64,000 nucleotides of DNA from Pseudomonadota bacterium (GTDB taxonomy: Bacteria; Pseudomonadota; Alphaproteobacteria; Rhizobiales; Beijerinckiaceae). Shown here piece after piece: positions 32,973 to 50,067 of this stretch (position 1 is its first letter; each line of letters begins with the position of its first letter). The translations under genes were made by a program, and so were the position numbers. Below the pieces are notes generated by a model. It did not search any database, was not told the origin of the DNA, and saw only the letters and a program-made list of their open reading frames with translations. Location of the stretch: NCBI GenBank assembly GCA_023450615.1, contig JAEXGT010000018.1, positions 8,808 through 72,807 on the forward strand. Direction: 5' to 3'.

Positions 32973-32974
32973 CT

Positions 32975-33046
32975 CTGCTTTAAGCTTTTGTTTTGGCGCA
33001 TCTTGTCACGCAAAACCGGTGCCCACTTTTGCGTTCGATGCTCTAG
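32975..33046. repeat. 72-bp intergenic repeat, copy A
   Basis: 69/72 identical to 48314-48385. It fills the gap between the convergent stops at 32970-32972 and 33043-33045. Internal stem ACGCAAAA / TTTTGCGT. Confidence 0.85.
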
Positions 33047-35853
33047 TCGCCTTCGATGATCTCACGGATTCGTACGGCCAGGTCCTCTATGCCGAACGGC
33101 TTCGTGATCATCTCCATGCCCGGATCGAGGAAGCCGGAGGCCATGGCGGCCTGTTCGGCATAACCGGTGATGAAGAGGACCTTGAGATTGGGCCTGATCA
33201 CGCGTGCATAATCTGCAAGCTGCCGGCCATTCAGCCCCGGAAGACCGACATCAGTCACGAGCAGGTCCACCCGCTGCTTCGATTCCAGGATTTTGAGACC
33301 TGATGGGCCATCCACCGCTTCGATGGCTTGATAGCCAAGGTCGGCCAGGACTTCCATGATCAGGGAGCGGACGACGCGCTCGTCCTCCACGACCAGAACT
33401 GTTTCACCAGCCTCCGCCCGATGCATCTCGCCGAGGCCTGTCACGGCGACAGGTTCCGAAGCCTCGCCCTCATGAGCCGGCAGGTAGAGCTTGACGGCTG
33501 TTCCCCTGCCGACCTCGCTGTGAATGCGAACATGCCCCTCCGATTGCTTGGTGAAGCCATACACCATGGAGAGGCCAAGGCCCGTTCCTACGCCGATCGG
33601 CTTGGTCGTGAAGAAGGGGTCGAAGACCTGCGAAAGAACATCGGCAGGCATCCCGGTTCCGGTATCGGAGACGCTGATCGTAACGTAGCGGCCAGGCGCG
33701 ATAGCCTGCTGAGCCGCCGCATAGAGATCGTCCAGGTGAGAAATGCCTGTTTCAACGATGAGCGCGCCGCCATCGGGCATGGCATCTCGCGCATTGATCG
33801 CGAGATTGAGGATGGCGCTTTCCAGCTGATTGGGATCGCACAGGGTCAGCGGCAGTTCTTCAGAAATCGCGAACCCGAGCTCAATGGATTCTGAAATGGT
33901 CCGCCGGAGAAGCTCCTCCATGGACATGACGAGCCGATTGACGTTGACGGGCTTCGGATCGAGAGGCTGGCGCCGCGCAAACGCCAGAAGGCGATGTGTC
34001 AAGGCCGCAGCGCGATTGGCCGAGGACGTGGCAGCCGAAATGTACCGGTCGAGATTATCGAGGCGGCCTTGCGCCATGCGGGTCTTCAGAAGATCGAGCG
34101 AGCCGACGATTCCCGTCAGAAGATTATTGAAGTCGTGCGCAATGCCTCCCGTCAGCTGGCCGACGGCTTCCATCTTTTGGGCCTGCCGCAGCGCCTCTTC
34201 GGTCCGCTTCAGTTCCGTGATGTCGTGTCCTTCCGCCACCAGGAAGATAGGCGTGCCCGTCTCATCCAGAACGGGTTTCATCGAAAAGTCGAAAATGCGG
34301 TTGCCGCCCGGCAGCAGGAGTTCCGACTCGTAGCGCACGAACTCTCCGGCGGCGACGCGCGCGACACTTTCGCGCGCCCGCTGGGCCTCGTCGGGAGAAT
34401 TCACCCACCAGGGAGCATCCCAAATCTTCAACCCCGCAACCTGTCTCTGCGCAGTTCCTGCGGCCTGCAAGGCCGCATTGTTGACGATCACCACGGTGCC
34501 ATCCAGCGCGCTAAGCGCCATCAGCTGGAAAGTGGTGTTGAAGATCGCCCGGAACCGGCGTTCGCTCTCGGCGAGTTCGGCCGTGCGCTCAGCAACACGG
34601 CTTTCGAGCCTTTCGTTGAGCTCCCGCAATCGCTCTTCCGACTGCTTTACCGCCGTAATGTCATAGATGACGCCGATAAATCGCAGGCCCGCTGTTTCGG
34701 TATCACGAACATACTCGCCCCGGCGAGCCAGCCAGCGAAGTTTCTTGTTGTCCGCCCGCTGAATCCGGCATTCGGCGTATGACGCACTTTCAGAAGCTGA
34801 ACCCTGCTCGACGAGAACGGGATCTCCCGGCATGACGAGATTGTTGATCGTGCGGATGGGCAAGACATTGGTCGGGTGAAGCCCAACCAGCCTGCAAAAT
34901 TCCTCCGAGACGCTGACGGTCGCAAAGCCGTCCACATATTCGAACGTTCCGATGCCACCGGCGCTCTGCGCAATCCGCAGCCGCTCCTCGATATGCTTCT
35001 GCTCAGTTACATCGAGGACGACGCCCGTGAAACGGACGGGATGATCCCCATCGCCAAAATGGCTGCGCCCTCGCGCATGGACCCAGCGCACCGAGCCGTC
35101 AGCGGAAAGAAGCCGGTATTCCTTGGAAAAGATTTCCGCTCCGTTGAGGATGCCTGCGACGGCCAAGCGGATTCTCAAGCGGTCTTCGGGATGGATGGCT
35201 TTGAAGAAATCGTCGGCGGGCAGACCTTTCCCGGCGCGGACCGGATCAAGGCCGTGGAGCGCTGCGAACCGCGCATCGGCGGTGAAGCATCCGCGAGGAA
35301 TGTCCCAATCCCAGGATCCGCCCGTTCCGGCAACGGTCAGCGTCTGGCGGAGCCGCTCATTGGTCCGATCGAGCTCCTGCTGGTTCGTCTGCAGAGCGGC
35401 GCGCATCTCCTCGGCCTGATGCGATTGCGTAACATCGACCTGGGTTGAGAGAAGGAAAAGCGGCTCGCCGTTCTCATCGTTGACGGGAGTCACGAAGAGA
35501 TGGTTCCAGAAGCGACTTCCGTCCTTGCGCTGGTTCAGAATTTCAATCGAGACGGCGTTGCCCTCCCGAATTGACTCGTGCAACCGCCGAACGGCTTCCT
35601 GATCGGTTTCCGGCGCCTGGAGGAAATCGCAATTACGCCCGACAGCCTCCTCGACCGAGTATCCCGTCATCCGGCAGAACGCCTCGTTCACGAAGACGAT
35701 CGGGTTATCGGGCAGCCGCGGATTTGTTGCCAGCATCGATAGGCCTGAGCGCTCCAGGGCCGAAAAGATCGGCCCTGCGATGCGGCGCAACTCTTCAAGC
35801 GCGCCCCCAATACTCTTATCAAGCGTATCATATGGGAGCTTTCGGGCCGTCAT
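33043..35853 (-). CDS. Hybrid sensor histidine kinase: LOV-type PAS, 3 PAS/PAC, HisKA, HATPase_c, REC
   Basis: LOV block DNPIVFVNEAFCRMTGYSVEEAVGRNCDFLQ...NQRKDGSRFWN...QVDVT. H-box GGIAHDFNNLLTGI. G-boxes DTGTGM and GLGLSMV. The C-terminal receiver has VLVVEDE...DLLVTDVGLPG...ITKP. Confidence 0.9.
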   Translation of the reverse strand: MTARKLPYDTLDKSIGGALEELRRIAGPIFSALERSGLSMLATNPRLPDNPIVFVNEAFCRMTGYSVEEAVGRNCDFLQAPETDQEAVRRLHESIREGNAVSIEILNQRKDGSRFWNHLFVTPVNDENGEPLFLLSTQVDVTQSHQAEEMRAALQTNQQELDRTNERLRQTLTVAGTGGSWDWDIPRGCFTADARFAALHGLDPVRAGKGLPADDFFKAIHPEDRLRIRLAVAGILNGAEIFSKEYRLLSADGSVRWVHARGRSHFGDGDHPVRFTGVVLDVTEQKHIEERLRIAQSAGGIGTFEYVDGFATVSVSEEFCRLVGLHPTNVLPIRTINNLVMPGDPVLVEQGSASESASYAECRIQRADNKKLRWLARRGEYVRDTETAGLRFIGVIYDITAVKQSEERLRELNERLESRVAERTAELAESERRFRAIFNTTFQLMALSALDGTVVIVNNAALQAAGTAQRQVAGLKIWDAPWWVNSPDEAQRARESVARVAAGEFVRYESELLLPGGNRIFDFSMKPVLDETGTPIFLVAEGHDITELKRTEEALRQAQKMEAVGQLTGGIAHDFNNLLTGIVGSLDLLKTRMAQGRLDNLDRYISAATSSANRAAALTHRLLAFARRQPLDPKPVNVNRLVMSMEELLRRTISESIELGFAISEELPLTLCDPNQLESAILNLAINARDAMPDGGALIVETGISHLDDLYAAAQQAIAPGRYVTISVSDTGTGMPADVLSQVFDPFFTTKPIGVGTGLGLSMVYGFTKQSEGHVRIHSEVGRGTAVKLYLPAHEGEASEPVAVTGLGEMHRAEAGETVLVVEDERVVRSLIMEVLADLGYQAIEAVDGPSGLKILESKQRVDLLVTDVGLPGLNGRQLADYARVIRPNLKVLFITGYAEQAAMASGFLDPGMEMITKPFGIEDLAVRIREIIEGD

Positions 35854-35897
35854 GCCGATAATGACTTCGTTGAGGCGATGCGGACAAGTGGCATAGC

Positions 35898-36539
35898 CTA
35901 GGCCTCGTCTCCGACAACTCGCTGGATGAAGCCCGCAATGAGTTCCTTCAGGGCCGCAAGCGAGGGCAGATCCATGAGCATGGCGATATAGCCCCGGATA
36001 TTCCGGTTGCGGACGGAGAAGTTGATATACAGGAAAAGGACCAAGCCCTCATCCGGGCGGGGCTGCATGAGCCTGAACAACTGAGCCCCGTCGCCGCGAA
36101 CGACTTCCGGCAGGGAGATGTTGAGAGAACGCTTCAACATGTTCGCCATCGTGGCAAGACAACCGTTCAGTATCACGTTGCCCGTTTCGGCCAGGGCCTC
36201 CTGTTCCATCTCGTCAACCTGATCGGGGGGCACCTCATCCCCAATGATGGCGCGGACGAGGTCCAGGCTTATGACTTGAGGCAAGATCAGAAGAGCTTGA
36301 CCGGAAAATGCACCTTCGAACTGCTGCTGAATGGCGACAAGCTCGTCTGTCTCACGTTCTCCGATCAGTCGAACCGCATCCTCCGGGGCCATGATCTCGA
36401 CGGATGGAACGGAGAGAAGCACTTCCTCCCCGATCATCTTGCGCAGGCTCGAAGCTGCCCGGCTGACGCCGATATTGACGAGTTCCGTCAGAGCGTCGCG
36501 TTCGAGTTCGGAAAGAGCGATTTCTCGGGGCATGGACAT
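35898..36539 (-). CDS. CheC-type CheY-P phosphatase
   Basis: Two copies of the CheC active-site pattern [DS]-x3-E-x2-N-x22-P: DALTELVN+22aa+P and EALAETGN+22aa+P (the second starts with E). The ATG overlaps the REC stop (TGATG). Confidence 0.75.
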   Translation of the reverse strand: MSMPREIALSELERDALTELVNIGVSRAASSLRKMIGEEVLLSVPSVEIMAPEDAVRLIGERETDELVAIQQQFEGAFSGQALLILPQVISLDLVRAIIGDEVPPDQVDEMEQEALAETGNVILNGCLATMANMLKRSLNISLPEVVRGDGAQLFRLMQPRPDEGLVLFLYINFSVRNRNIRGYIAMLMDLPSLAALKELIAGFIQRVVGDEA

Positions 36540-36922
36540 CACATCCCGCCTGTCCGCAGGCGCAGCGCCGCTCCCGAGATGAAACCTCGCAACCCCTCTT
36601 CGGTCAGAGGCTTGCTGACGAAGGTGGCATTGACCTCACGCGCCCGGGCGATGACCTCGTCCTGGATATTGGCCGTGATCACGGCAATCGGCATCGCCGG
36701 ATGGCTTGAGCGTATTTCACCTGCAAGCTCGAGGCCGTCCTTCTCAGGCATGTTGAAGTCGATCATCGCCACGTCGACCTTCCTAGTACCGAGAACGTCG
36801 AGCGCCTCCTGGGCGTTGCCTGCCTCGACTTTTTCCCAATCAGGCTGCAGGGCCGCCAGAGCCTTGCCTGCAACGATGCGTGCCAGCTTGCTGTCGTCGA
36901 CGATCAGAACGGTTATCGCCAC
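36539..36922 (-). CDS. Single-domain response regulator (CheY-like receiver)
   Basis: LIVDDS, phospho-acceptor context VAMIDFNMPEKDG, VITAN and SKP. 127 aa. The GTG start has a GGAG RBS. Confidence 0.85.
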   Translation of the reverse strand: MAITVLIVDDSKLARIVAGKALAALQPDWEKVEAGNAQEALDVLGTRKVDVAMIDFNMPEKDGLELAGEIRSSHPAMPIAVITANIQDEVIARAREVNATFVSKPLTEEGLRGFISGAALRLRTGGM

Positions 36923-37055
36923 TCAGGTACTCCACTAGGGATAAATTGCCCGGAAGGACCGGAGCGGAATGAAAGGAAACGCTATCAATCTCTTTTAGAG
37001 TATGCCCGAAGAATGACAACTGTTCAGCCTGCCTGTGCTGTCATGCCACCGGCAC

Positions 37056-37292
37056 TTAGCCGGACAGAACCGGGGCAATCCACGCTCGTAAAAATGGGTC
37101 CGCCGCGGCTCCTTTTAGACCTGGTTTGAAGGCCATCAGAATCTGAAGCACGGCGGCATGAAGGTGTTCGGCTTCCGACAGGTCGACGAGCCGGCTCGCA
37201 TCGGCCTGAAGCCATCGAAGCAAGGGCTCCGCATCTTCGACGCGGCACACCCCTTCAAGAACGATGACCTGTCCCTCCAGACGCACGCTCAT
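37056..37292 (-). CDS. Small (78 aa) STAS-like hypothetical protein translationally coupled to cheA
   Basis: ATGA overlap with the cheA stop. The pattern VIVLEGVCRVEDAEPLLRWL...VDLSEAEHLHAAVLQILMA resembles a short anti-sigma-antagonist (STAS) fold without the phosphorylatable Ser. Confidence 0.45.
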   Translation of the reverse strand: MSVRLEGQVIVLEGVCRVEDAEPLLRWLQADASRLVDLSEAEHLHAAVLQILMAFKPGLKGAAADPFLRAWIAPVLSG

Positions 37293-39259
37293 CCGATCAG
37301 CTCCGGAATATCGAGGATCATGAGAACGCGGCCGTCGCCGAGCAGGGTCGTTCCCATGACGCCAGGCATGCCGGCAAGAATGCCTGACATGGGGCGCATC
37401 AGCACATCCATTCTCTCGGCGAATGCATCCACGGCGATCCCAACCGGCCCGTCATCCAGTGCCATCACCACAACCTTCATGCCCGAATTCGGCTCCGTCT
37501 GGCGCGGAATGTCCAAAAGGTCGGAGAGCCTGACCAGAGGAATCGTCCGGTCGCGCAGGACGAAGGCCTCGGCCTCGCGGACCGGAAGGATGCGAGAGGC
37601 GGGCACAAAGGTCGTCTCGATCACTCCATCGAGAGGAATGCCATAGATTTCATGTCCGACCCTGACAGCCATGATCCTTGCCATGACGATGGTCAGGGGC
37701 AGGGTCAGCCGGATCGTCGTGCCGTGGCCCTGCTCGCTTTGAACGGTGGCCTGCCCGCCTAATCTTTCAATAGCGGAGCGTACGGCATCCATACCGACCC
37801 CCCTGCCCGACAGGTCGGTCACCTCCGAAGCCGTCGAGAATCCCGGCGCGAAGATCAGATTGATGATCTCGGAATCGCTCATCCGCTCGATTTCGTCCGC
37901 CGGGGCGACATTCCGCTCGCGGGCGACACGACGGATGACAGCGGGATCGATACCGCGCCCGTCATCCTGAACCTCGACCTGGACCCGGTCGCCCTCGCGA
38001 CGGGCCCGGAGCGCGACCCTGGTCCTTGCTGGCTTCCCGCTTTCCAGACGAACATCCTCCGGCTCGGCCCCATGGCCGATGGCATTGCGCAGGATGTGAA
38101 GCAAAGGTTCGAACAAGCCTTCGACGACGGACTTGTCCGCCTCGACATCTTCGCCCTCCATGGAAAAATCGACCGCCTTTCCCAGCGAACCCGCGATCTC
38201 GCGCACGACGCGGGGGATGCGCCGGAAGATGTCCCGCATGGGCATCATGCGGACATCCATGACGGCCCTGTGCAGCTCCGCCACGATCCGGTCGATGGCG
38301 AACTGGCTCGCGAGAAGTCCCTGCGACAATTCCTTCTGATCCAGCCGGTCCGTGATCTGCCCCGCCAGATGCGCTAAAGCATTCTTCGCAATAACCATCT
38401 CACCGACGAGATCCGCCAGATGGTCGATGCGCGTAGCATCGATGCGGAGCGACCGGGCATGAGTTCCCCCTGCCGCGTCCACTGTAGTGCTTCCGGCTCC
38501 CACTTCGCTGCGGTCCGTCCTGCGATGGGCGACCTCATGGATCGTGACTTGGTCCGGCACGAAACGGAAGACCGCTTTCACTGCATCGAGCCCTGCGCCG
38601 GAAAGCGCCTCGATCCTGAGATTGCATGCGAAGGGATCAATCTCGGAGCTGGGCGGCCAAGGGTCCCGGCTCGAGAAACGGACCGAGACGAGAGCGGGAA
38701 CGGAGCGCAGGAGAGCAACCGGATCGTCGCCCGCAAAGAAGCAATCGGCCCGTGGTGTGTAGCAGATGGTCACGAGGGAGCTTGCCTGCGCCGCCGCATC
38801 CGGGTTCAGAGCCATCAACTCCTCAACCCAGCCAAGGTCGACCAGCGGCGCGGCGGGAGCGGCAGGTGTCAAACCTTGGTCGACCTGTGACCGCAAGCCT
38901 CGCGCGAGACGGTAGCCTTCCTCGGCCGCGCCTTCCGGCAATTGCCCCGTTCGTTCGATATCGCCGATCCACCGCTCCGCTTGTGCGATGCATTCCAGGA
39001 GCGTGTCGATCACTTCGGCATCGGCCCTCGCCTGCCCCTCCTTGAGAGCGCCCAGCAGATCTTCGGCTGCGTGAAGGGCAAGCCCCATGGGCGCGAAGTC
39101 GAAGAGGCCGACGGAGCCTTTGAGCGTATGCACGGCCCGAAAAGCGCTGTCCATCTGCGCCGCGGTGCCAGGATCGCGCTCAAGCGCCAAAAGGTCATCC
39201 GTGGCCTGCTGGATCAACTCGCGGGCTTCGACGACGAAGTGCTGAAGGAGATCATCCAT
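37289..39259 (-). CDS. cheA: Chemotaxis histidine kinase CheA (P1-P5, no fused receiver)
   Basis: Hpt FRAVHTLKGSVG. HATPase N/G boxes HILRNAIGHG, DDGRGID and GRGVGMDAV. C-terminal CheW-like domain. The ATG at 39259 overlaps the cheR stop by 8 nt. Confidence 0.9.
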   Translation of the reverse strand: MDDLLQHFVVEARELIQQATDDLLALERDPGTAAQMDSAFRAVHTLKGSVGLFDFAPMGLALHAAEDLLGALKEGQARADAEVIDTLLECIAQAERWIGDIERTGQLPEGAAEEGYRLARGLRSQVDQGLTPAAPAAPLVDLGWVEELMALNPDAAAQASSLVTICYTPRADCFFAGDDPVALLRSVPALVSVRFSSRDPWPPSSEIDPFACNLRIEALSGAGLDAVKAVFRFVPDQVTIHEVAHRRTDRSEVGAGSTTVDAAGGTHARSLRIDATRIDHLADLVGEMVIAKNALAHLAGQITDRLDQKELSQGLLASQFAIDRIVAELHRAVMDVRMMPMRDIFRRIPRVVREIAGSLGKAVDFSMEGEDVEADKSVVEGLFEPLLHILRNAIGHGAEPEDVRLESGKPARTRVALRARREGDRVQVEVQDDGRGIDPAVIRRVARERNVAPADEIERMSDSEIINLIFAPGFSTASEVTDLSGRGVGMDAVRSAIERLGGQATVQSEQGHGTTIRLTLPLTIVMARIMAVRVGHEIYGIPLDGVIETTFVPASRILPVREAEAFVLRDRTIPLVRLSDLLDIPRQTEPNSGMKVVVMALDDGPVGIAVDAFAERMDVLMRPMSGILAGMPGVMGTTLLGDGRVLMILDIPELIG

Positions 39260-40109
39260 CTCGGTCGTTCCCCGGGCGCTGATAGACGATCGCATCCTCA
39301 AAACGGCGCAAGTCGAAGCGCTTCGAGATCCGCGTCATCGACTCGGTGTGGCCGAGACAGATGTATCCTTCCGGATTCAGGGCCTTGTAAAGGTTGTTCA
39401 CGGTCACGAGACGCGCGGGATCGTCGAAATAGATCAGGACGTTGCGGCAGAAGATGACGTCGAACCGTCCCTGCGCCGCCACGGATGCCGGATCGATGAG
39501 ATTGGCTGCCGTAAACTTCACCGACTCCCGCAGATCCTGGATCAGTCTGCGGCGTCCGTCCCGAAGCGGCTCGAAATAGCGGTCGATCACATCCTGAGGC
39601 AAACGGGAAAGAGCACGTTCTCCATACCTCCCGTCCTGCGCTTCGAGCAGGACGCGCGTATCGATATCCGAGCCGACAATCTCGATGTGATAGGCATCGA
39701 CAAGGGGCCAATTCTCGAGAAGCCAGATGGCGATGGAGTAAGGCTCTTCTCCCGTGGAGCACGGCACCGACCAGATCCGCACGAGATCCCCCGGCTTCCT
39801 GTTCTGCGCGATACTCGGCAGAAGGGAACGGCTGAGGCAGCGCAGCTGATGCTCCTCACGGTAGAAATAGGTTTCATTGACCGTGAAGAGGTTGATCAGG
39901 TGTTCGATTTCGCCCTCGTTGGACGCGATATGCGCGAAATAGGCAGGGAACGTATACGTTCCGGTCGCCGCCATACGGTCGGCGACCCGCCTCTCGATGT
40001 AGTAACGCTTGCTCTCGCCGAAAATCATTCCCGTATGGCGGTAGAGAAATGCGCAAAGCTGGCGGATCTCATCGACAGTCAGCGCATGCTCCTTCCGCGG
40101 CCTGCTCAT
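39252..40109 (-). CDS. cheR: Chemotaxis protein methyltransferase CheR
   Basis: CheR N-domain followed by the SAM-binding core IWSVPCSTGEEPYSIA and VIFCRNVLIYF. ATGA overlap with cheB. Confidence 0.9.
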   Translation of the reverse strand: MSRPRKEHALTVDEIRQLCAFLYRHTGMIFGESKRYYIERRVADRMAATGTYTFPAYFAHIASNEGEIEHLINLFTVNETYFYREEHQLRCLSRSLLPSIAQNRKPGDLVRIWSVPCSTGEEPYSIAIWLLENWPLVDAYHIEIVGSDIDTRVLLEAQDGRYGERALSRLPQDVIDRYFEPLRDGRRRLIQDLRESVKFTAANLIDPASVAAQGRFDVIFCRNVLIYFDDPARLVTVNNLYKALNPEGYICLGHTESMTRISKRFDLRRFEDAIVYQRPGNDRDG

Positions 40110-41209
40110 GGCGACAGCACCATATCCATGATCCGGTCGGCGATTTGCTCAAGAGGCACGACAATCTCGGCCCCACCGCGTCGAACCAACTCACCGGGCA
40201 TGCCCCAAACAACGGCGGTTTCCTCCGCTTCGGCAATGGTCCGCCCGCCCTCGCGCTTCAAACGCGCCATGGTTTCGGCCCCGTCGCTGCCCATCCCGGT
40301 CATCAATACGCCGATGAGACTTTCCGCTGCGAAGTGCTGCATGGCGCTCTCAACCAGGCGGTCGACGCTCGGGTGCCAACGATGCTCAGGCAAAGATGGC
40401 GCGGCCATCACGACGGGACCATCGGGCCGAGTGCTGATGATGACGTCGGCATCGCCCTTGCCGATATAGACATTGCCGGGTTCGAGCGGCATCGGTTGGA
40501 CGGCTTCCATTACCGTGAGAGCGCACAGCTTATCGAGACGGCGCGCCAGAGGACCGGTGAACGAGCCGGGCATGTGCTGGGCCACAACAATCGGCCAGGG
40601 AAAATCCTCAGGCAACCGGGACAGGAGCGCATCCAGGGCAGGCGGTCCGCCCGTCGATGTGCCGATCAGCACGATGCCATGGGCCGGTGCATTTTTGCGC
40701 CGCCGCCGCACCGGGACAGCGGCCACAGGCAGGCGTGGCACGACAACTCTCGCCGGATTTCTTCCCAAGCCGCTGCGCAGGCGCACTCGCTCAGCCAGCC
40801 TCAGGCTGCGGGGCAGACGCGCCCGTGATGCGGCGCGGACCTTCTCCACCAACTGGGGGCCAAGGGTTTCCATTTCGAGCGAAATCGCGCGGTCGGGCTT
40901 TGCGATGAAATCGACAGCCCCAAGCTCCAGCGCTTCCAGTGTGACGCGTGCGCCCGCATCCGTGAGGGATGAAACCATCACCACTGGACATGGGCGCTCC
41001 AGCATGATGCGGTCGAGACAGGTGAGCCCATCCATCTCGGGCATGTTCACATCGAGAGTGATCACGTCCGGCTTGAAGGCGTGCACCTGCTCCAGCGCCT
41101 CCACGCCGTTGCGAGCGAGAGCGATTTCGAAATCGCCCTCGGCGGTGAAGACACTGCCGATCAGACGTCGCATCAATGGAGAGTCGTCTACGACGAGCAG
41201 CCGGATCAC
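40106..41209 (-). CDS. cheB: Protein-glutamate methylesterase CheB (REC plus methylesterase)
   Basis: LLVVDDSPLMRR...ITLDVNMPEMDG receiver, plus an esterase domain with GTSTGGP and the AQHMP...F block. GTGA overlap with the CheW-domain gene. Confidence 0.9.
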   Translation of the reverse strand: MIRLLVVDDSPLMRRLIGSVFTAEGDFEIALARNGVEALEQVHAFKPDVITLDVNMPEMDGLTCLDRIMLERPCPVVMVSSLTDAGARVTLEALELGAVDFIAKPDRAISLEMETLGPQLVEKVRAASRARLPRSLRLAERVRLRSGLGRNPARVVVPRLPVAAVPVRRRRKNAPAHGIVLIGTSTGGPPALDALLSRLPEDFPWPIVVAQHMPGSFTGPLARRLDKLCALTVMEAVQPMPLEPGNVYIGKGDADVIISTRPDGPVVMAAPSLPEHRWHPSVDRLVESAMQHFAAESLIGVLMTGMGSDGAETMARLKREGGRTIAEAEETAVVWGMPGELVRRGGAEIVVPLEQIADRIMDMVLSP

Positions 41210-42639
41210 GGAGCGGAGCGCTCCGGATGATCTTCGTCCATGGCAGCAAGCAGATCCTTCTCGGCGCGATCCAACAACTCGCGCGGATCGAGCAGGAGGA
41301 TCATGCGTCCCTCGACCTCGATATTGGCGATGCGATCGATGACCTGGCTCCCGTCCGCTGCGAGATCGGGGGTCTGGCGAAGCTGCGCTTGAGAAATTTT
41401 GAGAACCTCCGACACGGTGTCGACGACGAAGCCGGCTTGCAGCTCATCAATCCGGACAACCACGATGCGTTCCCGTCGCCTCTCACCCTGAGCGTCGAGC
41501 TTGAATCGCCGCCGCTGATCGATGACCGGAACGACACGGCCGCGCAGGTTCATCACCCCTTCGATGAAGGCAGGAGCCTTGGGCAGCCGGGTCAGCGCAT
41601 CGGGCACGCGCACGACCTCATCGACCGCCCCGATGGGTAACCCGTATTCTTCACCACCCAGCTGGAAGACGATGAACTGCTCCTCGTCACGGTGCGAAGG
41701 CCCGTCAGCTGTACCCATGTCGTGGTTCTTTTCCGTTTGAGAGGAAATCTGCTCGAGCAGGGCCTGATCGCGGAACAGATGGTCCGGCGACAGGATCGAG
41801 ACCAGCCGCTGCCCCCCATCGAGCCGACAGATTCCCTGGATCTGTGCCTCCGCATCTCCCCGGGTGAGGATCGTCGGAACGGGATCGATCATGTCGGGAG
41901 ATATCCGAAGGATTTCCTTCATGCCGTCGGTCGCAAGACCCACCAGCCCTTCACCGATCCGTATCACGACGACCCGGGCTCTCCTGGCATCGCCAGTCGC
42001 GCGAAGGCCAAGCAACCCCCGTAGGGAAACTAGAGGCACGAGCTTTCCGCGCAGGGGAAGCACGCCGAGCATGACAGCATCGGTCTGCGGAACCGCCGTC
42101 ACATGCTCCGGGAGAGCGACAACCTCATGAACGGAAGGCAATGGCAGGGCAAAATCCTGTCCACCCACGGCAAAGCATACCAGGGCGATCTTGTCCGGGT
42201 CCGCGGCCTGCTCATGGTGCACCCGTGGAGCGGCGATTGACCGGCCAGATGCCCGGCGCGTGAAGCTGCCGAAATCCTTGGCGAGCAGCGCATCCAGATC
42301 AATCATCCGCGCCCGCACGTCATCGTTCTCTGACGATGCAAGCGATGCCACCCTATCCACCGCGAGGCCTACAGGGGAACCGCGGTCGATCACGACGACG
42401 CGGGCATTTCCAGAAGGAAGCCCCTCCCGTCCCAGGAGTTTGTGCAGCGACACAACAGGCATCACCGCGCCCCTGAGATTGGCCACGCCAAGCAGGCTGG
42501 AGGGACCAAGCGGCACTCGGGTAACAGCCGGACGGCGGATCACCTCGGCAACATCGGACGCGGGAAGGGCAAAACGTTCGCCCCCCAATTCAACCGTCAG
42601 GAACGATCGCGCGACGGACGCAGGAGCCGCCTGGGCCAT
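41206..42639 (-). CDS. Triple CheW-domain scaffold protein
   Basis: Three CheW-like units (FLTVELGGERFALP..., LVCFAVGGQDFALP..., FIVFQLGGEEYGLP...), each with an NLRG-type motif. The ATG at 42639 lies 5 nt after the MCP stop. The track extension to 42849 overlaps the MCP. Confidence 0.85.
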   Translation of the reverse strand: MAQAAPASVARSFLTVELGGERFALPASDVAEVIRRPAVTRVPLGPSSLLGVANLRGAVMPVVSLHKLLGREGLPSGNARVVVIDRGSPVGLAVDRVASLASSENDDVRARMIDLDALLAKDFGSFTRRASGRSIAAPRVHHEQAADPDKIALVCFAVGGQDFALPLPSVHEVVALPEHVTAVPQTDAVMLGVLPLRGKLVPLVSLRGLLGLRATGDARRARVVVIRIGEGLVGLATDGMKEILRISPDMIDPVPTILTRGDAEAQIQGICRLDGGQRLVSILSPDHLFRDQALLEQISSQTEKNHDMGTADGPSHRDEEQFIVFQLGGEEYGLPIGAVDEVVRVPDALTRLPKAPAFIEGVMNLRGRVVPVIDQRRRFKLDAQGERRRERIVVVRIDELQAGFVVDTVSEVLKISQAQLRQTPDLAADGSQVIDRIANIEVEGRMILLLDPRELLDRAEKDLLAAMDEDHPERSAP

Positions 42640-42643
42640 CACA

Positions 42644-44590
42644 TTACGACTCCACGATCTGGAGTTCATCCGCCAGGGAGGCGATCTCTTCAATCGCGGC
42701 GGCAAGGTCCTCTGATCCTTGCGCCTGCTGACGCGCCGCGCTTGCCGCTTGTGCGGCGGCCGCTCCGGCCTCTTCGGCGACGGCTGCGATCTGTTGGGTG
42801 CCGAGCCGAACCTCGCGCACGGACGTGAGAATGGTGTCCGAACCGGCAAAAATCGCGCTGTTGCCGCGACGGAGCGCCTCGACGTCAGCCTCCACCGCGT
42901 TGAGCCTCTCGGCAGTCAAGGTATTCTTGGCCACCTCGGCTTCCGCAACGACGGCGCTCTGCTCCAAGTCGCGCCGGACGATGATGATCTGCTCGCGGAT
43001 CTGGCGAATGACGTCCTTGATCCGGTCTGCATTCTCGGATGCATCGCGCGCCAGATTGCGGATATCACTGGAGACGATGGCGAAGCCGCGCCCCGCCTCG
43101 CCTACCCGCGCCGCCTCGATGGAGCCGCTCACGGCCAGCATGTTGGTCTGAACCGCCACGAGGGCGATGCTGTCGACGATCTTCTCGATGCGGCGCCCCG
43201 ACTCGTCCAACCCGCTCATCATGTCGATTACGGCACGGGTTTCCTTGAGCCCGCCCTCGACGCCCCTTGCGAGGCGCATGGTTGCGGAGCGGTTTTCCTG
43301 GAACGCGCCGGCAAGGCTTTCGATGCGCTGGACTGCGGTTTCGGCAACCTCCCGCGACGCGCTGGTAGCCCGCTCGATCTGCTCCATGGCCGCAGTGGTC
43401 TGCTGGGTCGCCGCAGCCTGCATCTGCGCTCCCCGGCTGATCTGATCGACCGCCGTCATGATCTCGCCCGCAGCGCCCGAAAGCTCCTGGATGGCCGCCG
43501 AAAGCTCCTCAGCCGCCGAACCGACCTGCTCGGAACTCGCCGAACCCGCCGTGTCGGACTGCAGATTGTCGGCCAGAACCGCCAGGGCATGTGCGGTCTG
43601 CTGGCTCTGGTCCAGCGCGACGCTCTGCTGCTGGACGGCCCGCTGAGCCTCCGCAGCCGCAGCGGCCTGCTCCTCTGCGGCGCTGGCGACCTGCTCGGCC
43701 CCGCGCTGCGCCTCGCGGATAGCTGCTTCCGCCTCGACGGCGGCAACGAGGATTGTCTGGCTGCCCTCCGCGAGGAGGGTAATGTCAGAGCGGATCTTGT
43801 CCAGGGCGGCAACGATGCCGCGCCCGGATTGCGCCTCGCCCGAAGCGGTTTCCGCAGCAGCCCTGATCCTCTCGGCGACGGAGCGCACTTCGCCCGCGAT
43901 CACCTCTGCCAGGGTTTGAATGTCCTGCGCGCTTTTCTCCGAGCTTCCGGCCAGAGCCCGCACCTCGTCGGCCACGACCGCGAACCCGCGACCGTTCTCG
44001 CCGGCCCGCGCGGCTTCGATTGCCGCGTTGAGAGCCAGAAGGTTGGTCTGGTCGGAGATGTCTCCAACCATGCTGGTGATTTCGCCGATGGTGGTGGCCT
44101 GCTGTTCCAAGAGCGAGATGATCTCGACCATGGCTCTCTGACGGGTAGCGTTCGCCTCGACGGATGCCACCGATGTATCGATTTGAGCAGCAGTCTCGAT
44201 CAGGAGGCTCTGGAGGCTCGCGGTCTTCGTGCGCGCCTCTTCCGCATGCTGCCGCGCGCCCGAGAAAGAAGCGCCGAGGCTCACGATGGCGGAAAGCGAT
44301 TGCTGGGATGCGCCCGCAGCCTCCTCGGCTCCGGCGGCGATCTGTTCCATGGAGCGTCGGAGTTCCTCCGCAGCGGCAGACGCCTCCGCCACTCCGCTCG
44401 CCAATTGCTCTGTCGCCGCGCCGATGCGCTCCGCAGCCTGCTGCTTGCGGGCCCTGACCCGCCCGAGGATCCGGCGCTGGGACGCGCCGCCCCGCACAGG
44501 GGAAGGGGATGCATTCGCAGCAGGCGCTTCATCACCGCCCGAGCGAGGGTTGCCCTTGCCCGGGAGTTCGGACGTCTTGACCAATGCCAT
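42644..44590 (-). CDS. Soluble methyl-accepting chemotaxis protein with two tandem signalling (MA) domains
   Basis: No hydrophobic TM segment. Two hairpin-tip motifs lie 300 aa apart: [32 protein letters not shown] (about aa 183-214) and [32 protein letters not shown] (about aa 483-514). Several EE/EQ methylation-like sites are present. Confidence 0.9.
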
Positions 44591-44873
44591 TGAGGCCCCT
44601 TGGGATTGATGGACGATGTTCGGTCGCCTGCCCTACCGGGAAGCCAAACGGACGGCTTCGTCAGAGCGGGTAAGAGCTGGCTTAACTTTTATAGTTGCCG
44701 ATCCTGTCCGAGCAAGGCGCCGCCTGGATTCTTCCTTGATAAAGACGCCCTTTGGCCCCTCTCCGGCCACTTATCCAAACCCTAGCGCGCCCGCCACATA
44801 GACTATGCAAGGATATAAGCTAGAGTGTACGGGAACCGTGTTGCAGCGGTTTTGCCTTCATGAGGGAAACAAG

Positions 44874-45857
44874 ATGTCCATGAAACTGACCCGTCGCGAT
44901 CTGGCCAAGCTCGGCCTTGGCTTTGGCGCTGCCGCCGCCCTGGGCCGCAATGCCTTTGCACAAGCGCCGGCCTTCTTCCGCATCGGGACTGGCGGTACCG
45001 CAGGAACCTACTACCCGGTCGGCGGCCTGATCGCAAATGCCGTTTCGAATGCGCCGCAGCTCGTTCTGACGGCCCAGGCTTCCAACGGCTCCGTGGCGAA
45101 CGTGAACTCCATCGTCTCCGGCGCTCTCGAGTCCGGCTTCACCCAGGCCGACGTGGCCTACTGGGCCTATACCGGCACCGGCCTCTTCGAGGGCAAGGGC
45201 AAGATGGAGGATCTGCGCCTCGTTGCGAACCTTTATCCCGAGAGCATCCATCTGGTCGCCGCCAAGTCCGCGAACATCAAGTCCGTAAACGACCTGAAGG
45301 GCAAGCGCGTATCCCTTGACGAGCCGGGCTCCGGAACCCTCGTCGATGCCCGCATCATCCTGAACGGCTGGGGCCTCAAGGAAAGCGACGTGAAAGCGGA
45401 TTTCCTGAAGCCGAACCAGGCAGCCGAGCGCATGCGCGACGGCGGCCTCGACGCCTTCTTCTTCGTCGGCGGCTATCCGACGAGCGCGATCACGGAGCTT
45501 GCTGCCACCGGCGGCGGCATCGACATCGTGCCCCTGTCCGGCCCCGAGGCGGACGCCATCCGCAAGCAGTACAGCTTCTTCGCCGCGGACGAGATTCCGG
45601 CAGGCACCTACAAGGATGTCGGCGCCGTGAAGACGCTGGCAGTCGGCGCGCAGTGGGTCACGTCCGCGAAGGTGCCGGACGCTGTCGTCTATGAAGTCGT
45701 GAAGGGCCTCTGGAGCGACAAGACCCGCGCCGCCCTCGATGCTGGTCACGCCAAGGGCAAGCTGATCCGCAAGGAGAACGCTCTGGCCGGTGCCGGCATT
45801 CCGATCCATGCCGGAGCTGAGCGCTTCTACAAGGAAGCCGGCCTCCTCAAAGGCTGA
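44874..45857 (+). CDS. TAXI-family TRAP transporter solute-binding protein
   Basis: Tat-like leader LTRRDLAKLGLGFGAAAALGRNAFA and the family block FFRIGTGGTAGTYYPVGGLIANAV. GAGGGA RBS. Confidence 0.85.
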   Translation: MSMKLTRRDLAKLGLGFGAAAALGRNAFAQAPAFFRIGTGGTAGTYYPVGGLIANAVSNAPQLVLTAQASNGSVANVNSIVSGALESGFTQADVAYWAYTGTGLFEGKGKMEDLRLVANLYPESIHLVAAKSANIKSVNDLKGKRVSLDEPGSGTLVDARIILNGWGLKESDVKADFLKPNQAAERMRDGGLDAFFFVGGYPTSAITELAATGGGIDIVPLSGPEADAIRKQYSFFAADEIPAGTYKDVGAVKTLAVGAQWVTSAKVPDAVVYEVVKGLWSDKTRAALDAGHAKGKLIRKENALAGAGIPIHAGAERFYKEAGLLKG

Positions 45858-45916: not shown

Positions 45917-46020
45917 AAAGCGTTTGCTCACCTCATTCAAGGCCGAGCAAACGTCCAAGCCTACCCTGGAAGAGCGGCGGCGCATGAATGCGTAAGCGCT
46001 GCCTGCATATGAGACCCGCC

Positions 46021-48192
46021 ATGTCTACTGTCGACACGTCCGCCCTGATCGAGAACCGCAGCCTCGAGGAAAAATTCGATCCCGAGATGCGCTTCCGCCC
46101 TCTGCTGCCAGGAACGGCGTGGCTCGTGGCCGGCCTTCTGCTGGCGCTCTCGCTCTTTCATTACTACACAGCGGGTTTCGGATTGCTGCGCGAAGCAACG
46201 CATCGCGGCATCCACATGGCCTTCGTCCTTGGCCTGATCTTCCTCGTATTCACCGCCTTCAAGACCGACCAGGACAAGGTCATCCCTTCCAGCCTGTGGC
46301 GGCCGGGGGGCATCTCCATCATCGATTGGCTTTTTGCCATCGCTGTTTCGATCGCGAGCCTGTACGTGCCGTGGATCTTCACCGATCTGGCATTCCGTGT
46401 AGGCAATCCGACTTTGACGGACGTCGCAATGGGAACGACCCTGATCGTTCTCCTGCTCGAAGCCACACGCCGTTCTGTCGGCTGGCCCCTTCCCGTCATC
46501 GCCATCGGCATGATGCTTTATGCCTATTTCGGCCCGTCGATGCCCGGCATTCTACAGCACCCCGGCGCCTCGTGGTCGAACATCGTCAACCATCTCTATC
46601 TGACGAGCCAGGGCATCTACGGCATCGCGCTCGGCGTCGTGGCGACTTATGTCTTCCATTACGTGCTCTTCGGCGTGCTTGCGACCCGCGTCGGCCTCGG
46701 CAAGCTCTTCATCGATCTCGCGACCTGTCTCGCCGGACGCTATGCAGGCGGCCCCGCGAAGGTTTCGATCTTCGGGTCGGCCCTGTTCGGCATGATCTCG
46801 GGTTCGTCCATCGCCAATACGGTGACCGTCGGCTCGCTAACGATCCCGGCCATGATCCGCGTCGGCTACAAGCGCCATTTCGCGGCTGCCGTTGAATCGG
46901 CGGCCTCCACCGGCGGACAGATCACTCCGCCGATCATGGGCGCCGCGGCCTTCCTGATGGTCGAGTTCCTGAACATTTCGTACCAGACGGTCATTCTCGC
47001 GGCCATCGTTCCGGCTTTCATGCATTTCTTCGGCGTCTTCATGCAGGTTCACCTGGAGGCAAAGCGCGCGGGCCTGCGTGGATTGCCCGCCGAGGAGCTT
47101 CCGAACGCCCGCAAGGTGATCCGTGAAGGCTGGCAGACGATCATGCCCCTGGCCGTGCTGCTGATGGTGCTGTTCTCCGGCTTCACACCCTATCTCGCCG
47201 CCTTCTGGGGCATCACGGGCTGCATCGTCGTGGGCGTCAGCCGCAATCCGGTCGTGACGCTCGGCTTCCTGGCGGCCATTGCCATCGCCATCACAACCGG
47301 AATGCTCACGCAGCTCGCCTTCTCGCTGCCGGCTCTTCTGTTCGTCACGGGCTTGATGATCTACGCCTATGTGAAGAGCGACGCAGGCAAGGCGAAGGTG
47401 ATCGACCTCATCGACGCCTTCGTCGTCGGCGCGAAATATGCCATCAGCGTGGGCGCCGCGGCGGCGACGGTCGGCATCATCGTCGGCATCGTGACGCTCA
47501 CCGGTGTGGGCTTCAAGATCTCCTTCATCGTGACCTCGTTCGCCGCGCAAATGGCGCAGACCGTAGGCGATATCCTGCCTGCGGGATTGATGGAAGCGAA
47601 GGCGCTGACCCTGCTCTTCACCCTGGCAATGACGGCAATCGTCTGCATCCTCCTCGGTTGCGGCGTTCCGACGACGGCCAACTACATCATCATGGTCACC
47701 GTCGCCGCCCCTGCCCTGATCCTGCTCGGCGTGCAGCCGATCGTAGCGCACTTCTTCGTGTTCTATTACGGCGTGCTCGCGGATATCACTCCGCCCGTCG
47801 CCCTGGCGGCCTATGCGGGGGCGAGCATGGCGGGCGCCGATCCGTTCAAGACCGGCAACACAGCGTTCCGCCTCGGCCTCGGCAAGGCACTTGTGCCCTT
47901 CGTGTTCGTCTACGGCCCCGCCATGCTGATCGTGACACCCGACTTCACCTGGCCGAGCTTCCTCCTGGTGACCGGAGGCGCGATCGCCGGCATCCTGTGC
48001 CTGTCGGCAGCTTTCGCCGGCTATGCCCTGACGGAGATGCGCGCCTGGGAGCGCTGGCTCATCGGCATCGCCTCTCTGCCGATCATCGCGCCCGACTTTA
48101 AGACCACCTTGATCGGTCTGGCGCTGGCAAGCCCTGTGGCCCTGTCTCAGATCATCAAGGCTCGCACCGGACCAGCGTCGGTCCCGGCCTGA
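46021..48192 (+). CDS. TRAP transporter fused permease (TAXI-type, DctQ/DctM-like fusion)
   Basis: About 720-aa polytopic membrane protein directly downstream of the TAXI SBP. The start is uncertain (ATG at 45988, 46009 or 46021). Confidence 0.85.
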   Translation: MSTVDTSALIENRSLEEKFDPEMRFRPLLPGTAWLVAGLLLALSLFHYYTAGFGLLREATHRGIHMAFVLGLIFLVFTAFKTDQDKVIPSSLWRPGGISIIDWLFAIAVSIASLYVPWIFTDLAFRVGNPTLTDVAMGTTLIVLLLEATRRSVGWPLPVIAIGMMLYAYFGPSMPGILQHPGASWSNIVNHLYLTSQGIYGIALGVVATYVFHYVLFGVLATRVGLGKLFIDLATCLAGRYAGGPAKVSIFGSALFGMISGSSIANTVTVGSLTIPAMIRVGYKRHFAAAVESAASTGGQITPPIMGAAAFLMVEFLNISYQTVILAAIVPAFMHFFGVFMQVHLEAKRAGLRGLPAEELPNARKVIREGWQTIMPLAVLLMVLFSGFTPYLAAFWGITGCIVVGVSRNPVVTLGFLAAIAIAITTGMLTQLAFSLPALLFVTGLMIYAYVKSDAGKAKVIDLIDAFVVGAKYAISVGAAAATVGIIVGIVTLTGVGFKISFIVTSFAAQMAQTVGDILPAGLMEAKALTLLFTLAMTAIVCILLGCGVPTTANYIIMVTVAAPALILLGVQPIVAHFFVFYYGVLADITPPVALAAYAGASMAGADPFKTGNTAFRLGLGKALVPFVFVYGPAMLIVTPDFTWPSFLLVTGGAIAGILCLSAAFAGYALTEMRAWERWLIGIASLPIIAPDFKTTLIGLALASPVALSQIIKARTGPASVPA

Positions 48193-48276: not shown

Positions 48277-48385
48277 GCCTAAAGCAGGGGACGTGGAATC
48301 GAACTCACGTCCACTGCTTTAGGCTTTTGTTTTGGCGCATCTTGTCACACAAAACCGGTGCCCACTTTTGCGCTCGATGCTCTAG
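48277..48385. repeat. Intergenic repeat, copy B, extended form (18-bp split hairpin plus the 72-bp core)
   Basis: GCCTAAAGCAG / CTGCTTTAGGC (48277-87 / 48314-24) with inner GGACGTG / CACGTCC, followed by TTTTGTTTT. The core 48314-48385 is 69/72 identical to 32975-33046. Confidence 0.85.
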
Positions 48386-50067
48386 ATGACGATGAAGTCG
48401 TCGCTCGTGAGAGCAAGGCCCGGCTTGAGCTTCGCGAACAGAACCGCGCCGACCTTTTTCCCCGATCCATCCGCATCGTAATACAGATAGCCATTCTTCT
48501 TGTTGTAGATCAGGTAATCGTTCTTATCGAGCGCCTTGCTGCCGATGACGAAATAGGCCGCCTTCAGCTTTCCGGCCGAGCCCAGTTTCTTGAAGATAGA
48601 ATTTTCCAGCTTGATCGTATCGTCGGCGACATTGAAATCCGTGATCGTGCTGACATTCACCTTCGACTTCAGCGCGGTGTTGAAGACGAACGTGTCCTTG
48701 CCAGAACCGCCCGAGAGCGTGTTGAGCCCGAGACCGCCGTTGAGGACATCGTTTCCGGCATCGCCATAGAGCTTGTCGTTCCCCGCGCCGCCCGAAAGCG
48801 TGTCGTTCTGGGTTCCGCCGTAAAGAGTGTCGTTGCCGTTCCCACCCGACAGGTTGTTCTTACCCAGGCCGCCGTAGAGCTTGTCGTTACCGTGGCCGCC
48901 CGAGATCGTATCGTTCCCCACATCGCCGTAGAGGATGTCGTTGTTGTCTCCTCCATCCAGGCGATCGTTGCCGGGACCGCCATAGAGAGTGTCGTTTCCG
49001 GCACCGCCAGAGAGATTGTCGTTTCCGACATCTCCATAGAGCTTGTCGTTGCCGTTCCCACCGTCGAGCCGGTCGTTGCCCTTCCCTCCATAGAGGAGGT
49101 CGTTGCCGTTTCCGCCGGTCAGCGTGTCGTTGCCGCCATCGCCGTAGAGCTTGTCGTTGCCGTCGCGCCCATGGAGAATGTCGATGCCGGAGCTCCCATA
49201 GATCTCATTCGACAATTCGTTGCCGATGAGCGTGAGACGCGATGTTCCGGGAGACGCTTTCAGGATTTCGATGCCGCTTCCCAGCTCATACGAGGACGTT
49301 GCGATGACCGTATCGCGCCCGCTCGTGTCCATCACGACGTCGAACGCGTTGTCGACGAGATAGGTGTCGTTTCCAGCGCCACCGATCAGCGTATCGACGC
49401 CTCCCTTGCCGTCGAGGAAGTCGTTGCCTGCGGTCCCGATGATCTGGTTGGCGAACCTGTTGCCCGTGAGCTGAAGAGAACGCGCGTGCGAGGCCGCCCT
49501 CAAAACCTCGACCTCCGCATCGGACATCAGGGCATAGGATACGCCCGTCTCGACAATGTCATATCCGGCACCAACAGCTTCAAAGACACGGTCTTCCTTG
49601 CTGTCGACATAATAGGTGTCGTTTCCGTAGCCACCCTGGAGGGTATCGTTCCCCCCTCTTCCATCGAGAATGTCGTCGCCGGAATAACCTTCCAGATAAT
49701 CACCACGTGACGTTCCGGTGATGACGTCATTCCCCGCAAGGATAATTGCTGCGGCATCGCCGCCGCGCCTATGGAAGGAGAGAAGATCGGTATACGAGAA
49801 AAGAACGGGCCCGCCGATAGCGCCATATGTCAGCCAGGGCGAAGCGTTCGGTCCAAAGCGCAGATAGGAAACCTGACCGAAGGCGTTGGAGAGGGCCTGC
49901 CCTTCGTAACGGACATCGACGGGCGACTGATAGACGGTCACCCGGAAGTCGGCGTTCCAGCGAGAGCCTACACTCGTAATATTGAAGCTGTTGCCGATGA
50001 TGGTCGTAAACAGAGCCTGCAGACGAAGGCCAGCAGGCATGCTGTTATGAAGTGTAACAACGGCCAT
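48382..50067 (-). CDS. RTX (hemolysin-type calcium-binding repeat) protein, T1SS-substrate type
   Basis: More than 20 GGxGNDxLx nonapeptides ([29 protein letters not shown]...). No signal peptide. C-terminus ...[19 protein letters not shown]...SDDFIVI. Confidence 0.9.

Follow-up and report, generated by a model that had tools for sequence, protein, structure and literature searches.

The stretch of DNA analysed here, hereafter the window, comprises 64,000 nucleotides of contig JAEXGT010000018.1 (assembly GCA_023450615.1) from an alphaproteobacterium of the Beijerinckiaceae. At 42644..44590 on its minus strand lies a gene with an ATG start that encodes a soluble receptor of 648 residues, made up of two tandem methyl-accepting chemotaxis protein (MCP) signalling (MA) domains. 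With a probability of roughly 0.88, this gene is the DosM orthologue of a Microvirga-type alphaproteobacterium and belongs to a chemosensory cluster of the F9 class—a reading that includes the mechanism known for DosM, in which the receptor would form a rod with one signalling tip at each end. The preliminary description of the gene, made from its sequence, had presumed this architecture to be novel. However, it is already described as DosM (VC1403) of Vibrio cholerae with its triple CheW partner VC1402 (PMC7534058, PMC9321776), and the feature itself is not new.

The receptor and its two signalling hairpins

The composition of the receptor is dominated by Ala, Glu, Ser, Gln and Arg, and its frame is open across all 648 codons. 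The highest 19-residue Kyte–Doolittle mean along the whole receptor is 1.45, in the helix adjoining the second hairpin tip, and the protein therefore has no transmembrane segment. In the Pfam search, MCPsignal (PF00015) is the sole family and is matched by two stretches; no HAMP, PAS or ligand-binding domain is matched. The two halves of the receptor were also scanned separately against the MCPsignal model, which has a length of 172 positions and a cut-off of 34.6 bits. The first half (residues 1–324) matches with 2.2e-27 at half-residues 154–303 and the second half (residues 325–648) with 3.9e-23 at half-residues 123–280; both matches cover nearly the whole model and lie far above the cut-off. 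NCBIfam yields sub-threshold matches only: signalling regions of various named MCPs and two marginal SMC coiled-coil matches far below threshold. The soluble protein without transmembrane, sensor, HAMP or PAS part proposed in the preliminary description is borne out by these searches, and so are its two independent PF00015 matches. Public proteins related to it include one of 100% identity, one from Microvirga vignae at 87% and those of named Microvirga species at 75–87%.

All parts of the receptor given in the following are encoded on the minus strand. The N-terminal region, residues 1–45 (44456..44590), features the peptide MALVK followed by a variable linker of Pro, Gly, Ser and basic residues, as judged by predicted disorder and conservation among homologues. 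Signalling hairpin 1 spans approximately residues 46–345 (43556..44455) and signalling hairpin 2 residues 351–648 (42647..43540); between them lies a junction loop of the sequence DTAGSA, residues 345–350 (43541..43558). Tip 1, at residues 181–211 (43958..44050), carries the canonical sequence and tip 2, at residues 481–511 (43058..43150), a variant one. The tip motifs AGENGRG (residue 196) and VGEAGRG (residue 496) are spaced by exactly 300 residues, as already read from the sequence in the preliminary description, and this spacing corresponds to approximately 21.4 heptads per arm.

The structure of the receptor monomer was modelled with AlphaFold2 (AF2) on the basis of 72 homologues. The model features a mean predicted local distance difference test score (pLDDT) of 88.5 and a predicted template modelling score (pTM) of 0.64. 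Helices are predicted for residues 36–344, the element of hairpin 1, and for residues 351–647, the element of hairpin 2; the six-residue loop DTAGSA, where the pLDDT dips to 72, is the sole non-helical stretch within residues 36–647. Residues 1–35 are predicted to be disordered, with pLDDT values below 50. In a Foldseek search against the PDB, the model superposes on the cytoplasmic hairpin of TM1143 from Thermotoga maritima (2ch7_A); the match takes in 302 of 309 columns, with a root-mean-square deviation of 3.1 Å and a TMt of 0.84. Since nothing else gives such a match, a true antiparallel hairpin of equal length is predicted. In addition, the sequence of half 2 aligns to residues 13–230 of TM1143 (2CH7) with zero net offset. 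TM1143 thus resembles the receptor model in hairpin length and fold, but it is one hairpin of a membrane receptor, whereas the receptor in the window consists of two hairpins arranged head to tail without any other domain. We take TM1143 to belong to the 44H class, following Alexander and Zhulin 2007. V. cholerae DosM (VC1403) and receptors of the F9 class are likewise listed as 44H (PMC9321776 supplement). Two full signalling hairpins with candidate docking tips for CheA and CheW, as had been put forward before, are supported by the MCPsignal match of each half and by the TM1143-like model. The converse case of only one real hairpin is rejected, as each half matches MCPsignal and both are predicted to be helical.

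Comparison of the two halves by BLASTP gives a single gapless alignment over 250 residues (52–301 against 352–601) with 29% identity and an E value of 1e-19. At the DNA level, the only repeat at a spacing of 900 nucleotides is a 23-nucleotide match of 70% at the QTN codons. Because the halves align without gaps and yet are just 29% identical, the duplication is old and not an artefact of assembly; the lack of any DNA repeat beyond the 23-nucleotide match excludes an assembly duplication as well. The assembly artefact considered in the preliminary description is accordingly dismissed, and the internal duplication is ancient.

Methylation-type sites were located with the consensus [ASTG][ASTG]xx[EQ][EQ]xx[ASTG][ASTG]. 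The receptor contains 12 matches, which are symmetric across the halves and lie at the same distances from each tip (−137, −102 and +108). The sites of hairpin 1 are E61/Q62, E89/E90, Q96/Q97 and E306/E307/Q308; those of hairpin 2 are E354/Q355, E361/E362, Q368/E369, Q396/Q397, E606/E607 and Q621/Q622. The EE and EQ pairs in methylation-like contexts that had been pointed out in both halves are thereby recovered as consensus matches at equal tip distances. Homologues swap E and Q at these positions—a pattern typical of real CheR/CheB sites—and the sites of the receptor are regarded as putative ones. With a conserved hairpin tip and candidate methylation-consensus Glu/Gln pairs on both arms, the protein has the general features of an MCP.

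The regularities of the receptor extend to its family. With phmmer, run exhaustively against 1.84 billion cluster representatives, 386 clusters are obtained at E ≤ 1e-30, the homologues being overwhelmingly approximately 630–670 residues long and collinear with the receptor over approximately residues 37–644, at identities down to 29%. Tip statistics were derived from 85 diverse full-length representatives with 26–59% identity to the query. Of these, 69 have their tips exactly 300 residues apart, and in 79 the distance lies between 299 and 301 residues; such a nearly fixed spacing is expected for a molecular ruler. Tip 1 is canonical (LLALNAA...ADEVR), with N188, A189 and A190 invariant. Tip 2 carries a conserved signature of its own, MLAV[S/N]G...[S/A]xDIR, defined by M484, V487, S/N488, the invariant G489, D509 and I510, and its invariant Gly489 occupies the place of the invariant Ala189 of tip 1. 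Both tips are under purifying selection, yet they are non-equivalent. The greater divergence of tip 2, which the preliminary description had taken to suggest that the halves have diverged in function, is hence a property conserved throughout the family. Several of the differing positions presumably correspond to trimer-contact residues of Escherichia coli Tsr (L380, N381).

Outside the tips, the junction loop is variable in sequence among homologues but for a conserved Gly. At the N terminus, L3 and K5 are invariant and M1, A2, V4 and L9 are conserved to at least 90% in 72 homologues; the approximately 30 residues after MALVK are variable and predicted to be disordered. The MALVK motif is also present in DosM proteins of Acidobacteriaceae, Competibacteraceae, Bradyrhizobium and Novosphingobium, and approximately 30 of the 85 diverse representatives begin with MAL-x-K or similar. 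A few relatives are overlong with two matched stretches, namely P0138 (1051 residues), P0215, P0217 and P0226 (approximately 745 residues) and P0202 (705 residues); these may contain an additional domain or one more hairpin.

Affiliation with DosM and the F9 class

The F9 class is defined by the domain combinations MCP_signal:MCP_signal and CheW:CheW:CheW and by the 44H class of its receptors, and the spacing of its baseplates is listed as 35 nm (PMC9321776 supplement). In a survey of 2,781 species, full F9 clusters occur in approximately 2%; DosM with its tandem signalling domains and the triple CheW (CheW3) are unique to F9 and are the two signature components of the survey, and 98% of DosM homologues hold nothing beyond the two signalling domains (PMC9321776). 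Cluster I of V. cholerae, which is of the F9 class, forms cytoplasmic arrays for which DosM (VC1403) is essential, paired with the triple CheW VC1402 (PMC7534058). Cryo-tomography reviewed in that source portrays V. cholerae DosM as a long rod that bears signalling domains at both of its ends and spans two CheA/CheW baseplates. The V. cholerae system is stress-induced, and its phenotype is so far not known (PMC7534058, PMC9321776).

The receptor gene in the window heads a minus-strand operon of the order DosM-CheW3-CheB-CheR-CheA-small open reading frame (ORF)-CheY-CheX, which is identical to the published order DosMW3BRA.YX. It combines the tandem PF00015 domains, the lack of a transmembrane or sensor domain, the adjacent CheW3, the F9 gene order and homology to a catalogued DosM. 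The catalogue entries were reached by tblastn against plasmids, which led to the locus on plasmid pSA2 of Novosphingobium resinovorum SA1, whose proteins WP_069710031.1 and WP_083274891.1 are the DosM and CheW3 accessions of the published Table S6. The receptor is 51% identical to this DosM over residues 1–601 (E 7e-150), and the CheW3 of the window is 42% identical to this CheW3. Table S6 lists the order "DosM"W3BRA.YX for Microvirga ossetica, where DosM is a pseudogene, and the same W3BRA.YX order for Methylobacterium terrae, Novosphingobium resinovorum, Sphingobium, Sphingomonas panacis and Nitrospirillum (PMC9321776).

The system of N. resinovorum SA1 shares the MALVK N-terminus and the neighbours CheW3, CheB, CheR, CheA, a hypothetical protein, a response regulator, CheX and a PAS hybrid kinase. 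It differs in that it resides on a conjugative megaplasmid and in that its tips read G-A-G and G-S-G, compared with G-R-G at both tips in the window. DosM-type genes were encountered on further large plasmids (records H1–H12, e.g. NZ_CP017077.1 691852-711249), half of which are predicted to be conjugative. These plasmids come from Agrobacterium vitis, Rhizobium, Novosphingobium, Sphingobium, Methylobacterium currus, Methylosinus trichosporium and Eleftheria terrae, a distribution that fits published accounts of F9 clusters spreading horizontally. On other sequences, DosM-CheW3-CheB, usually with CheR and CheA in addition, is syntenic in Microvirga aerilata, Bradyrhizobium aeschynomenes, two Acidobacteriota and one metagenome-assembled genome of Clostridia, and the DosM-CheW3 pair is present on a short contig of the gammaproteobacterial Competibacteraceae.

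V. cholerae DosM likewise consists of only two tandem MCP domains, which are listed as 44H, a length class that the receptor of the window may well share, and is encoded directly upstream of a triple CheW and then CheB in a cluster of the F9 class. The gene order there is DosM-W3-B-.-R-Y-A-.-Y-M, compared with DosM-W3-B-R-A-.-Y-X in the window, and the cluster ends with an MCP gene, whereas the window has a CheX phosphatase and a PAS hybrid kinase instead. Arrays were seen in V. cholerae and are a prediction for the host of the window. The sole V. cholerae locus obtained, L063, was set aside, as it encodes an ordinary MCP with a single signalling domain and CheW3 is absent from its surroundings.

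The Che2 system of Rhodospirillum centenum with its receptor MCP2 is an F9 cluster of an alphaproteobacterium (PMC9321776 Table S6) and features a tripartite CheW (PMC2890560). It differs from the window in its order DosM-W3-B-.-R-Y-A and in its CheA, which is fused to a receiver there. Che2 steers flagellum biosynthesis and not taxis: mutants are hyper- or non-flagellated and still chemotactic, and deletion of mcp2 leads to hyperflagellation (PMC2890560). Within the F9 class, MCP2 is the sole relative found with a genetic phenotype. A further point of comparison is offered by the following systems outside the tandem architecture. Single-domain soluble receptors, such as TlpT/TlpC of Rhodobacter sphaeroides, form membrane-free sandwich arrays with two baseplates as well. 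These carry one signalling domain per chain, and their layers are joined by an overlap of the receptor ends and not by one chain reaching both baseplates.

A predicted rod and its alternatives

The receptor chain comprises two full-length hairpins of equal length joined by a six-residue loop, with no sensor or membrane part, and its operon supplies a complete complement of genes for the kinase and for adaptation. By homology to V. cholerae DosM, two chains would pair to form an elongated rod that exposes a kinase-docking tip at either end, with both chain termini and the junction located midway. The rod ends would enter two opposed CheA/CheW3 baseplates; the rod could thereby act as the structural staple and the ruler of a membrane-free, double-layered cytoplasmic array, setting the spacing of its layers. 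Sensory input would be supplied by other soluble receptors, encoded elsewhere, and CheR and CheB would adapt the array via the central methylation regions. As a rough estimate, two hairpins of approximately 21 nm add up to a tip-to-tip length of approximately 42 nm, in keeping with the 35 nm listed between the baseplate layers. Some points weigh against this reading: the placement of the rod across two baseplates is carried over from V. cholerae, the output of the pathway in the host is uncertain, and a tblastn search of the 64-kb window for another MCP—a possible soluble partner—finds the receptor gene alone.

Among the alternatives, the one that survives best, though we regard it as improbable, is that the chain folds back on itself. 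The junction would form a U-turn, the hairpins would pack as one four-helix bundle and the unlike tips would come to lie side by side, giving an asymmetric, "heterodimeric" receptor of a single-layer array. The short non-helical junction with its conserved Gly is compatible with such a turn, and the pTM of the AF2 model is above what would be expected for two mutually unconstrained halves. A folded-back chain would also explain the family-wide differences between the tips, at positions that presumably correspond to Tsr trimer contacts. However, it contradicts the published tomography, since DosM of V. cholerae spans both baseplates and is needed for the array (PMC7534058). In addition, the baseplate spacing of 35 nm is estimated to suit two hairpins of TM1143 length placed end to end, and a strict tip spacing of 300 residues is a need of a two-layer ruler.

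Less probable again is that the receptor processes signals autonomously rather than being a mere scaffold, controlling CheA at both tips with the halves carrying different signals. Its input could be the PAS hybrid kinase, the small STAS-like protein encoded after cheA, the methylation state or the MALVK peptide. What speaks for such a role is the conservation of E/Q-swapping methylation-type sites in both halves and of the N-terminal peptide, together with the retention of the PAS hybrid kinase, the small ORF, CheY and CheX beside the cluster in three alphaproteobacterial genera. The regulatory phenotype of the R. centenum mcp2 deletion, hyperflagellation instead of a simple loss of function, points in the same direction (PMC2890560). 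On the other hand, a ligand-binding domain is absent according to Pfam and NCBIfam, and the literature holds that additional receptors are needed, since 98% of DosM proteins lack sensors and DosM fills every other trimer only (PMC7534058, PMC9321776). Autonomous signalling is, moreover, compatible with a scaffold role.

The reading as an artefact or a decaying gene, be it a duplication introduced in assembly, two neighbouring MCP genes that became fused or a pseudogene, for which the pseudogene entry of Microvirga ossetica in the published survey might speak (PMC9321776, Table S6), has a negligible probability and is refuted by the 648 intact codons, the diverged halves devoid of a DNA repeat, the strong purifying selection on both tips and the collinear full-length homologues of 630–670 residues in hundreds of 50%-identity clusters.

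For the preferred reading as a rod spanning two baseplates, the family-wide regularities suggest an elaboration. The MALVK peptide, as judged from its conservation and the disorder predicted behind it, looks like a docking peptide on a tether, placed midway along the rod. On its tether of approximately 30 residues, it could dock CheR/CheB or another partner and would then be a counterpart of the NWETF tether at the C terminus of E. coli receptors. The joint reading that the rod is polar by design and carries a MALVK docking site on a disordered tether is tentative, and we hold it to be rather doubtful. If it were true, the sandwich array would have two chemically distinct baseplates; each of them might attract its own CheW3 domains or partner receptors, or CheA might be bound by only one of the two. 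In the DosM and F9 literature, the primary DosM paper aside, neither the tip polarity nor the MALVK peptide was found.

The operon, its surroundings and significance

Directly downstream of the receptor gene, the minus strand carries cheW3 (41206..42639), which encodes 477 residues from the ATG at 42639, with a GTG at 42642 as an alternative start. Pfam matches CheW in three stretches (1.3e-91), in agreement with the triple CheW named as the neighbour in the preliminary description. The TAA stop of the receptor gene is followed by the GTG after 1 nucleotide and by the cheW3 ATG after 4 nucleotides (42637-42646), so that cheW3 starts 2–5 nucleotides downstream. As this start nearly abuts the dosM stop, the two genes are probably translationally coupled. 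A longer cheW3 ORF of 547 residues from a TTG at 42849 was rejected as an over-extension that overlaps the receptor gene by approximately 200 nucleotides.

The next genes, all on the minus strand and assigned by Pfam, are cheB with a REC and a methylesterase domain (40106..41209), the methyltransferase gene cheR (39252..40109) and cheA (37289..39301). The latter comprises Hpt, dimerisation, HATPase and CheW-like P5 domains, as judged by Pfam and its ORF; where it begins is uncertain, given the 50-nucleotide overlap of the listed TTG with cheR. A small ORF of 78 residues (37056..37292, minus strand) overlaps the cheA stop codon (ATGA) and is probably the unnamed "." of the published F9 gene order. 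It is 74% identical to its counterpart at the same position in Microvirga aerilata and 42% identical to the hypothetical protein WP_069710036.1 of N. resinovorum pSA2. Pfam finds nothing significant in it; STAS_2 is matched below threshold with an E value of 0.037 (2e-4 for the homologue).

The operon continues on the minus strand with a cheY-like gene for a single-domain response regulator (36539..36922) and a cheX/cheC-type phosphatase gene (35898..36542, matched by CheX and CheC), both assigned by Pfam. Directly after cheX follows a PAS-rich hybrid histidine kinase/response regulator of 936 residues with multiple PAS domains according to Pfam (33043..35853, minus strand). This kinase occupies the same position in Microvirga aerilata, Bradyrhizobium aeschynomenes and N. 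resinovorum pSA2, and together with the small ORF, CheY and CheX it is kept beside the cluster in the three alphaproteobacterial genera. Located past the "YX" end of the published order, it may feed signals into this cluster variant or relay its output. A scan of 32800-45000 for promoters and terminators gives no more sites than shuffled sequence.

Divergently upstream of the operon lie a TAXI-type (NMT1_3) solute-binding protein (44805-45857, plus strand) and a fused DctM-type TRAP permease of 734 residues (45988-48192, plus strand); this TRAP transporter is probably unrelated to the chemosensory cluster. The window further contains two proteins with RTX calcium-binding repeats, both likely secreted adhesins or exoproteins. 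The one at 12500-17533 (plus strand) has 1677 residues with NosD/beta-helix, cadherin and RTX repeats, and the one at 48382-50067 (minus strand) has 561 residues with 11 RTX repeat matches.

As a discovery, the receptor carries little weight: double-signalling-domain receptors and their triple-CheW partners were described in 2016 (Briegel et al., PNAS) and have been surveyed across bacteria, including Microvirga. The analysis files the locus as an intact F9/DosM cluster, whereas the surveyed copy of Microvirga ossetica is a pseudogene. What novelty remains would lie in small points read from sequence, namely the conserved polarity of the tips, the MALVK peptide on its disordered tether, and the STAS-like ORF and PAS hybrid kinase of the alphaproteobacterial variant. 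The family-wide regularities—the fixed spacing of 300 residues, the non-equivalent tips, the central N-terminal peptide, the STAS-like ORF and the PAS hybrid kinase—could guide experiments on the assembly of cytoplasmic arrays.

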